DNA of 12,488 nucleotides from Candidatus Hermodarchaeota archaeon (GCA_048885535.1 JBHLLO010000082.1:1-12488); one strand, 5' to 3'. Shown: positions 1,994 through 8,729, counted from the first letter of the stretch. Translations and numbers: made by a program. The notes: generated by a model not told the origin, from the sequence alone.

Positions 1994-2096
1994 GGGAGGG
2001 TAGTCTAGCTTGGTATGATACTCGGCTGGGGTTTGTTCTGCGTTTGCAGACCTTCCGGACGCCGAGTGGTCGGGGGTTCAATTCCCCCCTCTCCCA
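1994..2096 (+). tRNA. tRNA-Pro(GGG) with a 29-nt intron at canonical position 37/38 (2032-2060)
   Basis: Acceptor GGGAGGG/CTCTCCC plus discriminator A; D-arm GTCTAGCTTGGTATGAT; anticodon stem CTCGG/CCGAG with anticodon GGG at 2028-2030; T-arm GGGGG-TTCAATT-CCCCC. Splice-motif central helix CTGG(2026-2029)/CCGG(2055-2058). Mature length 74 nt; CCA not encoded. Confidence 0.92.
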
Positions 2097-5032: not shown

Positions 5033-6793
5033 TTAATGTGTAAAATAACAAAATAACTTGTTATTTTCTCTATTAGTTGGATTTACAAATCCATATCTTT
5101 CAAATTGCACTGGTTTATTTAATGGGATATCTAACAAATTTATTTCTCCATATCCCTTTGAGATTGTACCATCTGGGTTTAAAATTGATACGTCTACATA
5201 TTCATCTTTAGGAACCCATTGGATAATTGGATATTCTCTATTCAACTTTAAACTGTGATAATTGCATTTAATTTTCTTAGCATCTAAATTTAGAGCTCCA
5301 ATCTCAATATTCATCAAATCTTTCAAACGAATTATATCTTTTGGCTTTAAAACTTTAGCATCATATTGAGAGATGAAGATAAAAATTTTCCCTTTTTTCG
5401 CTCTACCTCTAACTTTTCTACTTCCCTGCTCTGGATTTGAAGGTATTAATAGAGGTTCAGCACAATATTCTAAGAAAGGAACTTTTGAGATCTCAATTAA
5501 TACAGGGTTTTCTACATAGAAATATCTTTCTGAAATTTCGTCAATGATGTCTTTATTTTTCGAGTATAACCAATTTACATCGAATGTGATTCCTGATAAT
5601 GACATCCCTAGATCAAATAAGACATCTCGTAATGCTTCGGGTCTTATTCCTCTTTTTGCAAGAGATTGAAGGCTCCAAGTTCTGGGATCTTCCCAACCAT
5701 CATATATGCCATTCTGTATATTATTTCTTGCATCTGTTTTACTTAATTTCATATTTGGAAATTTTAATCGTCCATAATGTAGAAATTCTGCTTTTCTCCA
5801 TTTAAAATGTTCCCATATGAAACTTTCAATAAAGTCTTCTTTAACTAAATCCACACCTCTAAGAATGTGTGTAACTCCAATAAGATAATCATCAATCGCC
5901 CAAGAAAATTCAAGCATTGGCCATACAATATATTTTTTTCCGACTCTAGGATGCTCTGCTTCAGAAATCCTCATAATAATTTGATCTCTTAAAGCAGGAT
6001 CTTTTTGATCCATACCTGTTTTTAATCTTACAACAGCTTCACCTTCATTATATTTTCTTTGGAGCATTTTATTCCATTCTTCTAAATTCTGTTCTAAAGA
6101 TTGAGCTCTATGAGGGCAATTTTTCTTTTTATTTTTATAATTTTCCTTAAATATTTCAGCTGAACAAAAACATACATATGCAAGGTTATCTTTGATTAGT
6201 TTTTCACAATAATCATAAAAGATTTCTAATCTATCACTTTTATAATAAACTTTTGAATAATTAACACCTAACCATTTGAGACCTTCTTCAATTAGGTTAT
6301 AAGCTTCTGGAATTACAAATTTAGCTTTAGGACTATCTCTTAATGATTTAGGACTCCCAATTGTATCATCAAAAAAAAGAATTAAGTCTCCTGAATATCG
6401 TTGAACATACTCATCATTTAACACAACCATTCTAGCATTACCAATATGTAATGCTCCACTTGGATATGGAGCTAAACGCATAATAATTTTTTTATAATTA
6501 CTGACATTTGGTAAATCTGGTAATACCTTTTCCTCCTCTTTTGGTTCTTTCTTGTCCAAAGCATGAGGATCCAACTTTAATAATTCTTCAATTTGCTGCT
6601 CAAGACTCATGCTAGATATTTCTTCAATGATTTTATCCAAAAGAGGGTTTATTTCTTTGGCTAAGGGCCTCAAATCTTCTCTTTGTGCCATCAATTTGCC
6701 CATAACTGCTTTTTTATTAGGCTTACCTTCAAATTCTACTGCATTTTTAAGACCATTTATCCATAAGATTTCTTTTATTTCTTTTTCGTTCAT
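5033..6793 (-). CDS. gltX: Glutamate--tRNA ligase, archaeal type
   Basis: RLAPYPSGALHIGN (HIGH variant), AYVCFC, VTHILRG, KLSK (KMSKS variant), GWEDPR and C-terminal VQFERYGF; archaeal N-terminal NAVEFEGK extension. Confidence 0.97.
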   Translation of the reverse strand: MNEKEIKEILWINGLKNAVEFEGKPNKKAVMGKLMAQREDLRPLAKEINPLLDKIIEEISSMSLEQQIEELLKLDPHALDKKEPKEEEKVLPDLPNVSNYKKIIMRLAPYPSGALHIGNARMVVLNDEYVQRYSGDLILFFDDTIGSPKSLRDSPKAKFVIPEAYNLIEEGLKWLGVNYSKVYYKSDRLEIFYDYCEKLIKDNLAYVCFCSAEIFKENYKNKKKNCPHRAQSLEQNLEEWNKMLQRKYNEGEAVVRLKTGMDQKDPALRDQIIMRISEAEHPRVGKKYIVWPMLEFSWAIDDYLIGVTHILRGVDLVKEDFIESFIWEHFKWRKAEFLHYGRLKFPNMKLSKTDARNNIQNGIYDGWEDPRTWSLQSLAKRGIRPEALRDVLFDLGMSLSGITFDVNWLYSKNKDIIDEISERYFYVENPVLIEISKVPFLEYCAEPLLIPSNPEQGSRKVRGRAKKGKIFIFISQYDAKVLKPKDIIRLKDLMNIEIGALNLDAKKIKCNYHSLKLNREYPIIQWVPKDEYVDVSILNPDGTISKGYGEINLLDIPLNKPVQFERYGFVNPTNRENNKLFCYFTH

Positions 6794-7823: not shown

Positions 7824-8504
7824 TTATGAGTTTTTTTTTTTAATATCTCTGTTAAATAACTCAATTATGTCAGTGAACTCAATCTCTGATAAATCATTTA
7901 TGATTAAATCCGCATTAAAAAACTCACTCCTCTCATGTGTGGTAGTGAGCGCTATAACTTTCATTTCTGCTCGTTTAGCAGCAGTAATGCCGACAGGAGC
8001 ATCTTCAACAACAATGCAGTTCTTCGGGCTTAATTTTAATTTTTTAGTGACAGCAAGAAATACATCAGGAGCAGGTTTTCCAGTTTTGACATCATCACCA
8101 GTAATTATACAATCAAAATAATTTTTTATTTTTAGAGTTTTCAATAGAAGTTTCACATTAGCTGTTGGTCCACTTGATCCAACAGCTAATTTAAGTTTTT
8201 TATCTTTAAGGCTTTTGATTAAATCTAATGCTCCAGGCAAAGGTTCTAGTTTATCCTTAACCATTTCACGATAATATTTTTCCTTAGAATTTGCCCAATT
8301 TTTGATTTTTCTTTGATCAATATCAGGCCCAACTAACTTCCTTATAATATCAGAACTAATTTGACCAAAAGTCTCCTCAAAAAGATCTTTTGTAAAATTT
8401 TTACCGATTTCATTAGCTAGTTTCACCCAACTATCAAAATGAATTGGTCCAGTATCCGCTAACACCCCATCCATATCAAAAATGACGCAATAATTATCAA
8501 ACAT
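7824..8504 (-). CDS. HAD-superfamily phosphatase (beta-phosphoglucomutase/CbbY-like, subfamily IA)
   Basis: Motif I FDMDGVL, motif II SS, motif III GKPAPDVF and motif IV VEDAPVG. Confidence 0.93.
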   Translation of the reverse strand: MFDNYCVIFDMDGVLADTGPIHFDSWVKLANEIGKNFTKDLFEETFGQISSDIIRKLVGPDIDQRKIKNWANSKEKYYREMVKDKLEPLPGALDLIKSLKDKKLKLAVGSSGPTANVKLLLKTLKIKNYFDCIITGDDVKTGKPAPDVFLAVTKKLKLSPKNCIVVEDAPVGITAAKRAEMKVIALTTTHERSEFFNADLIINDLSEIEFTDIIELFNRDIKKKNS

Positions 8505-8594
8505 AATTTTAACTGTTGAAAATGACTAGAAAAAATTATAGTTAATCAATAATTATAATTTTAAAATACAATTTTTTTAAATTTTTATAAAAAA

Positions 8595-8729
8595 GGCCTG
8601 GTAGTCTAGCATGGATAGCAATTCTAGGCTTAATAGCTTTGCATGAACAGGGCGCTGGCTTGCGGAGCCAGATGTACATTGAAAATATTCCTGTACTGGA
8701 AATCGAGGGTTCAAATCCCCCCCAGGCCA
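8595..8729 (+). tRNA. tRNA-Arg(GCG) with two non-canonical introns (about 32 nt in the D-loop, ~8616-8647; 28 nt at 45/46, 8674-8701)
   Basis: Acceptor GGCCTGG/CCAGGCC plus discriminator A; D-stem GTCT/GGGC; uninterrupted anticodon arm CTGGC-TT-GCG-GA-GCCAG (anticodon 8662-8664); T-arm GAGGG-TTCAAAT-CCCCC. Removing 32+28 nt from 135 leaves a normal 75-nt cloverleaf. Confidence 0.9.

Follow-up and report, generated by a model that had tools for sequence, protein, structure and literature searches.

Positions 8595-8729 of the window, i.e., the whole 12,488-nt stretch of DNA that was analysed, very probably hold a real, working and apparently sole tRNA-Arg(GCG) gene, which is likely to be essential and carries two protein-spliced BHB introns. 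The gene is ordinary for its lineage and is explained by published work. Multi-intron, non-canonical tRNA genes of Asgard archaea are already in print, according to the available parts of two reports (PMC11291895; bioRxiv 10.64898/2026.10.13.758758), and the present gene adds a well-documented Lokiarchaeial example to the pattern described in other Asgard classes.

According to the mechanism proposed here, the gene would be transcribed as a precursor of ~135 nt with two BHB introns. An EndA of the heterotetramer type, with a catalytic alpha subunit that has a crenarchaeal-type loop and a non-catalytic beta subunit, would cut both motifs, and the RtcB ligase would then join the exons into a 75-nt tRNA reading CGU and CGC. 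Transcription, the actual cuts, and ligation are predictions made from the DNA sequence.

Gene anatomy and splice motifs

The gene comprises three exons and two inserts:

8595-8729, + strand: tRNA-Arg(GCG) gene, predicted precursor of ~135 nt, three exons and two inserts
8595-8616, + strand: exon 1, with the 5' strand of the acceptor stem, U8-A9, the 5' strand of the D stem, and the D loop to G18 G19 A20 (T20a)
8616-8648, + strand: intron 1, 32 nt, in the D loop at ~20/21 (8616-8647 in register A, 8617-8648 in register B)
8649-8673, + strand: exon 2, with A21, the 3' strand of the D stem, G26, the anticodon arm, and positions 44-45
8674-8701, + strand: intron 2, 28 nt, in the variable loop between positions 45 and 46, HBh' motif
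8702-8729, + strand: exon 3, with positions 46-48, the T arm, the 3' strand of the acceptor stem, and discriminator A8729

The 3' end of exon 1 falls at 8615 in register A and at 8616 in register B, and the 5' end of exon 2 moves to 8648 in register A. The acceptor stem is a perfect 7-bp helix (GGCCTGG/CCAGGCC), the D stem is GTCT/GGGC, and the T arm reads GAGGG/TTCAAAT/CCCCC, with an A50-C64 mismatch in its stem (8703 and 8723). The anticodon arm is uninterrupted, having the stem CTGGC/GCCAG and the loop TTGCGGA at 8660-8666. Its isoacceptor identity follows from the anticodon GCG (8662-8664) in a 7-nt loop, U33, a purine at position 37, and a closing stem of 5 bp. The 3' CCA is not encoded in the gene, and the flanks on both sides are very AT-rich.

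When 8616-8647 and 8674-8701 are removed in silico, the remaining 75 nt are reported by ARAGORN as tRNA-Arg(gcg). The initial annotation had described a tRNA-Arg(GCG) with two non-canonical introns, namely a complete cloverleaf with inserts of 32 and 28 nt and a 75-nt product. All of its coordinates and lengths turn out to be correct, and the identity is borne out by the anatomy together with the ARAGORN call on the spliced sequence. Both intron sites, 20/21 and 45/46, belong to the published list of non-canonical archaeal intron positions, and HBh' and hBH count among the accepted relaxed forms (PMC4090602, available in part).

The minimum-energy fold of the precursor (−46.5 kcal/mol) displays neither BHB, and the whole-precursor fold exceeds shuffles in stability only marginally (z = −1.84, with 9 of 200 shuffles at least as stable). 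Because this fold shows no BHB, enforced conformers and comparative counts were used. The layout applied to each motif has h-H-bulge-h' on the 5' strand and h'-H-bulge-h on the 3' strand, and the cut is placed after the second base of the bulge.

Under this layout, the central helix of intron 2 is formed by CCAG 8668-8671, which is the 3' strand of the anticodon stem (positions 40-43), and CTGG 8696-8699, with all 4 pairs present. The bulges are ATG 8672-8674 on the 5' side and AAA 8700-8702 on the 3' side. The inner helix, TACA 8675-8678 with TGTA 8692-8695, has 4 bp and abuts the central helix. The outer helix has just 1 bp, so the form is HBh', and intron 2 thus carries an archaeal BHB in a relaxed version. 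Enforcing the motif costs 3.8 kcal/mol, since it competes with the anticodon stem. In the precursor, the 3' end of intron 2 (CUGG) would pair with C40-G43, and the stacked intron hairpin would present two 3-nt bulges 4 bp apart. Such a conformer would exclude the anticodon stem, which would be formed only after excision.

The motif of intron 2 is also supported by comparison. In all 8 orthologs that have this intron, 4/4 central pairs form and are directly adjoined by an inner helix of 2-8 bp; six different sequences make up these inner helices (P ≤ 0.001 against shuffled introns), and in the ortholog alignment 5 of the 6 inner-helix pairs are changed on both sides.

As for intron 1, only a relaxed BHB motif is predicted. 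The intron lies just before A21, and the motif would be formed by nucleotides 16/17-20 of the D loop together with the intron's 3' end. Cleavage may take place after A20 (...GGA-CAGGG..., register A) or after T20a (...GGAT-AGGG..., register B), with roughly even odds. Both registers lead to a 75-nt tRNA, the sole difference being C or U at position 20a. The one-base (C/T) ambiguity that had been noted at the first junction is therefore real, GGA-CAGGG versus GGAT-AGGG.

Host genome, detection, and tRNA census

The window represents an entire contig (C82) of an assembly of 3.09 Mb, which has 112 contigs, a completeness of 91.6%, and a GC content of ~29%. The GluRS gene at 5033-6793 has relatives with up to 84% identity, almost all of them in Promethearchaeota MAGs. 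Judging by these relatives, the host, earlier called Asgard-like, is indeed a Promethearchaeota (Loki/Asgard) MAG.

ARAGORN reports no tRNA at 8595-8729, whether intron mode is on or off and whether the window or the genome is scanned. In intron mode on the whole genome, its sole call on contig C82 is a proline gene, and several of its calls elsewhere fall within coding sequence. The proline gene, tRNA-Pro(GGG) at 1994-2096 (+), has one intron of ~29-32 nt at the canonical position 37/38 and an Rfam score of 50.9 bits. Within the window, Rfam at the gathering threshold finds only this gene and misses the arginine locus. At a permissive threshold, RF00005 reports 8627-8729 with 28.1 bits versus a cut-off of 29 and with a wrong 5' end; the alignment begins within intron 1, and intron 2 is taken as one long insertion. 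Thus, the expectation that standard scans would miss the gene holds for ARAGORN and for Rfam at the gathering threshold. Without the gene annotated, the genome seems to lack the sole decoder for ~15% of its Arg codons, namely CGU and CGC.

The genome was also scanned with a rough SPLITS-like solver, which starts from GC-rich 7-bp acceptor anchors, removes up to three BHB-like inserts, and scores the resulting cloverleaf. Its top solution at the arginine locus consists of the same two inserts as in the initial annotation, and the locus scores 83 in the genome census. Among 799 anchors genome-wide, 43 real ones reach a score of at least 70, as compared with none of the 253 solutions from interior-shuffled controls. 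The solver is ad hoc and clearly places some introns only approximately, and its solution for intron 1 depends on how strict the rules are: slightly looser ones yield a third boundary in the window, with a 31-nt insert after position 15.

In the census, 47 loci score at least 65, and five of them were dropped because their cloverleaf sub-score of at most 60 is at or near the range of the shuffled controls. The 42 credible tRNA loci comprise 10 intron-free ones and 32 with at least one intron, including 14 with two or three; these numbers are rough, with about nine expected anticodons missing and several placements approximate. A canonical intron only is found in 6 loci, a D-arm intron in 15, and a variable-region intron in 5. 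Rfam reports 25 tRNAs above the cut-off in the whole genome, of which 12 are 91-123 nt long and hence carry inserts. By this rough census, the tRNA-Arg(GCG) gene appears typical of its genome, and since 32 of the 42 loci are interrupted, the cell must process such substrates routinely.

Arginine anticodons in the census are TCT (two copies), CCT, TCG, and GCG, the last occurring once. When the 3.09-Mb assembly was scanned on both strands for such anticodon arms, plain or with a canonical intron, no second Arg-GCG gene emerged: the GCG anticodon-arm pattern has 54 matches, with tRNA context at the C82 locus only. The check for another such gene that the initial annotation had proposed is therefore negative within the 91.6%-complete assembly. 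CGT and CGC together account for 15.3% of Arg codons, as counted in 731 long ORFs.

Several other loci of the census may be mentioned. Three-intron tRNA genes are predicted by the solver for Asn GTT (C22:7674-7825), Val CAC (C8:62093-62259), and Leu TAA (C1:87891-88069), and a T-loop site at ~58/59 with introns of ~30 nt recurs in many genes of the genome according to the same tool. ARAGORN reports a candidate tRNA-Sec(TCA) at C73:9476-9568 (−), with an Rfam score of 34.6 bits, and the organism probably uses selenocysteine. An identical tRNA-Ser(GCT) is present at two contig ends, C2:8-110 (−) and C8:5-62 (+), probably because the assembly was broken within a tRNA gene and the two contig ends overlap.

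Relatives and alternative explanations

When 60 relatives were searched at the DNA level, six genomes (G010, G029, G019, G021, G032, and G025) proved to have both inserts at identical sites, corresponding to 6 of the 36 same-genus genomes searched. Intron-free genes were found in genome G007 and at locus L015, with the junction sequences GGATAGGGCG and CCAGATATCGAGGG, which are the junctions predicted for the spliced product of the window. The intron-free ortholog in G007 (L042) scores 58 bits and aligns over positions 1-71 of the Rfam tRNA model, i.e., in full length. The comparison of intron presence in relatives that had been suggested earlier thus reveals a two-intron form shared by six genomes, other relatives being intron-free or interrupted at different sites.

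According to the solver, 21 distinct orthologs fall into six architectures: no intron (4), D only (3), T only (4), D and variable loop (7), D and T (2), and variable loop and T (1). This count covers 21 of 27 distinct orthologs, the omitted ones being five near-identical variants with a T-loop intron only and L049. D-arm inserts occupy at least three different sites. Many of the tRNA-Arg(GCG) orthologs likewise adjoin GluRS, and with six architectures among 21 orthologs, the GluRS-adjacent locus offers a handy natural series in which the gain and loss of introns and the specificity of EndA can be studied.

The syntenic tRNA-Arg(GCG) genes beside GluRS belong to two sequence types, as seen from L032, L020, L007, and L016 compared with the window. 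Type one has an acceptor start of GGCC or GGTC and introns in the D and variable loops, whose intron is absent from type two, where the acceptor begins with AGCCCAG and the intron is in the T loop. GluRS identity is no guide to the type: L032, with 84%, is of type two, and G010, with 83%, is of the window's type. This pattern suggests replacement or recombination at the locus.

Among the seven two-intron genes, identity of the aligned columns equals 95.4% for exons, 56.1% for intron 1, and 62.8% for intron 2. The anticodon stem and loop are invariant in 7/7, and the acceptor stem shows two compensatory pairs among orthologs. As for the BHB helices (register B and intron 2), 86.5% of cells are paired, as compared with 27-44.4% in controls whose partners are shifted by 1-3 columns. 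Of 19 pairs, 11 carry changes in both partners, a count that none of 500 shuffles reached. Since the seven genes share ancestry, the shuffle result makes them look more independent than they are, and the shifted controls provide a fairer comparison. Each of the seven two-intron orthologs has the A50-C64 mismatch, the intron-free L042 and L015 share the GAGGG/CCCCC T stem, and some other relatives have G-C at 50/64. Being kept across two-intron and intron-free orthologs, the mismatch is a lineage trait and no sign of decay.

These results bear on two other explanations of the locus. It might be a decaying or silent pseudogene that retains its inserts, with CGU and CGC being read by an intact tRNA-Arg(GCG) in the ~8% of the genome that is unassembled. 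Such an explanation could draw on the incompleteness and fragmentation of the assembly (91.6%, 112 contigs), on the motif of intron 1, which is merely relaxed in the window, and on the A-C mismatch in the T stem. It appears quite improbable, however, because exon sequence is 95% conserved next to drifting introns, covariation is seen in the motif helices and in the acceptor stem, and the same two-intron form is present in six further genomes of the genus. Moreover, L042 and L015, which are intron-free, have the mismatch too, the search of the assembly revealed no further GCG anticodon arm in a tRNA context, and with 32 of 42 census loci interrupted, interruption is the norm rather than an indication of decay. 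It is extremely unlikely that the inserts are artefacts of assembly or chimera formation, which the initial annotation had named as a way in which it might be refuted. tRNA 3' ends are repeat-like in metagenomes, and the Logan contigs do end at ~8724, where the depth is up to ~20-fold higher. Nevertheless, Logan contigs of three runs (X1, X2, and X3, all from one study and possibly from the very samples that yielded the MAG) cover 8300-8724, differing at 0-1 positions and showing no indel, and homologous inserts occur at the same sites in six other genomes.

With the locus taken as a functional gene, the question of the intron 1 junction is a sub-case that presupposes splicing, and its probability should not be summed with those of the other explanations. 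Removal of 8617-8648 (register B, ...GGAT-A...) rather than 8616-8647 has a slightly less than even chance. In the window itself, register A pairs CATG 8610-8613 with CATG 8642-8645, yielding 4/4 Watson-Crick central pairs and flanking helices of 0 bp, whereas the central helix of register B has just 2 wobble pairs out of 4. When enforced, the fold of register A (−42.7 kcal/mol) is more stable than that of register B (−35.6 kcal/mol) by 7.1 kcal/mol. In addition, L020, which has no D-loop intron, reads GGACAGGG, and C at position 20a is thus tolerated. In contrast, the window's own inner helix, GCAA 8618-8621 with TTGC 8639-8642, belongs to register B. All six two-intron relatives also fit this register (GGAT-...-AGGGC): 3/4 central pairs form, the innermost position being mismatched in every case, and an inner helix of 2-5 bp abuts them directly. 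Register A is poor in these relatives, having 2/4 central pairs. The helices of register B covary in the ortholog alignment, and GGATAGGG is read by 3 of the 4 intron-free orthologs (L042, L015, and L060) as well as by most other orthologs without a D-loop intron. A 46-nt contig from run X1, which lacks exactly 8617-8648, points in the same direction; it is DNA of an intron-1-free relative in the same sediment and not spliced RNA.

Splicing enzymes, published systems, and a possible origin of intron 1

PF01974 and PF02778 each match two loci of the genome, on C6 (200 aa) and on C1 (205 aa). The C6 protein, an EndA alpha, matches the A. pernix alpha subunit with an E-value of 3e-35 and aligns without gaps to 3p1z_B across the Crenarchaea-specific loop. 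The residues corresponding to APE Y125, H133, K164, R157, and W183 are retained, and in the loop K58-P-R60 of the C6 protein is aligned to APE K44-P-R46; the roles of these residues of APE EndA are described in PMC3241643 (available in part). The C1 paralogue has Ala at the aligned catalytic His in two separate alignments, which fits a structural beta subunit. An RtcB ligase is encoded as well (560.9 bits). The two EndA proteins would thus be expected to assemble into an (alpha-beta)2 heterotetramer that may cleave relaxed motifs.

The initial annotation had claimed a broad-specificity EndA of either the alpha2beta2 or the epsilon2 type. Regarding the former, the alignments agree with an alpha-beta enzyme having the crenarchaeal loop, and the epsilon2 alternative falls away. 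Its further inference on EndA and the origin of eukaryotic TSEN is not new, since an (alpha-beta)2 EndA with the L1/crenarchaeal loop was reported in Asgard archaea in 2018 (PMC5829648, available in part). The present finding leaves knowledge of EndA and of the origin of eukaryotic TSEN unchanged.

A functional parallel concerns A. pernix, whose EndA cuts a D-loop BHB intron through its specific loop (PMC3241643, same part). Its pre-tRNA-Thr has an intron in the D loop as here, and the alpha subunits are alike, with the catalytic triad and the loop Lys and Arg kept. However, cleavage was shown biochemically for A. pernix, whereas for the present gene it is predicted from the sequence, and the D-loop motif in the window is more relaxed. 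Several non-canonical BHB introns per gene and an alpha-beta EndA with the crenarchaeal loop are also shared with Thermoproteales, e.g., Pyrobaculum islandicum tRNA-Pro(UGG) with introns at 25/26, 37/38, and 56/57 (cited in PMC4090602, available in part). Unlike the introns of Thermoproteales, which often belong to transposing families common to several tRNA genes, neither intron of this gene has another copy in its genome.

As for Asgard archaea, incomplete tRNA sets were taken as pointing to undetected disrupted genes (available part of PMC5829648). Introns, often non-canonical and several per gene, interrupt 92-95% of the tRNA genes of Atabeyarchaeia and Freyarchaeia (PMC11291895, available in part). 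In 90 Asgard genomes, tRNAscan-SE misses 25-30% of inserts, mostly D-arm ones; the inserts sit at BHB boundaries, and their gains are frequent and recent (bioRxiv 10.64898/2026.10.13.758758, available in part). The genes described in these two sources share with the present one the phylum-level group, multiple non-canonical introns and D-arm inserts missed by annotators, and their introns share a length of ~22-32 nt, BHB-compatible boundaries, and repeated gains among close relatives. In what is available of both, the focus is on Jordiarchaeia and Atabeyarchaeia, whereas this gene is Lokiarchaeial; the available main text of the bioRxiv report has no mention of 'Lokiarchae' or 'Promethearchae'.

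How such inserts arrive is left open in the available part of bioRxiv 10.64898/2026.10.13.758758, and local duplication is not among the tests listed there. In the window, the last 22 nt of intron 1 (8627-8648) match exon 1 (8595-8616) at 14 of 22 positions in exact tandem register, and the match extends to 16/24 when counted by eye. In a shuffle test this corresponds to P = 0.0002 at the tandem offset and 0.0014 at any offset. Among 87 intron-exon comparisons in the genome, intron 1 is the most extreme (P = 0.0003) and the sole one with P < 0.001, which becomes a borderline ~0.03 after correction for 87 tests. In relatives, the match between intron 1 and exon 1 is 7-11/22. A general signature of introns copying the neighbouring exon was rejected, with 4 of the 87 comparisons at P < 0.05, i.e., about the chance level. 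A tandem duplication of the full 32-nt unit was rejected as well, as the first 10 nt of intron 1 match the 10 nt that precede the gene, or the initial 10 nt of exon 2, at only 2/10 positions each (by eye). Intron transposition found no support in the genome, where neither intron has a second copy (the best off-target match has 19 nt and E = 0.049).

Tentatively, intron 1 might be the remnant of an event that partially duplicated the 5' end of the gene itself, although this origin is considered doubtful. If true, it would provide a concrete arrival route for an Asgard tRNA intron, with a local duplication creating a spliceable boundary by chance. A similar case is tRNA-Thr(GGU) of Caldiarchaeum subterraneum, where a decayed second copy of the 5' part of the tRNA is tied to an intron. 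That copy, however, lies 1.8 kb away across an element encoding a recombinase, while here the similar segment is inside a 32-nt intron with no mobile-element gene (PMC3293823, available in part). The weak tRNA reported by Rfam at 8627-8729 starts at the same segment of intron 1 that resembles exon 1.
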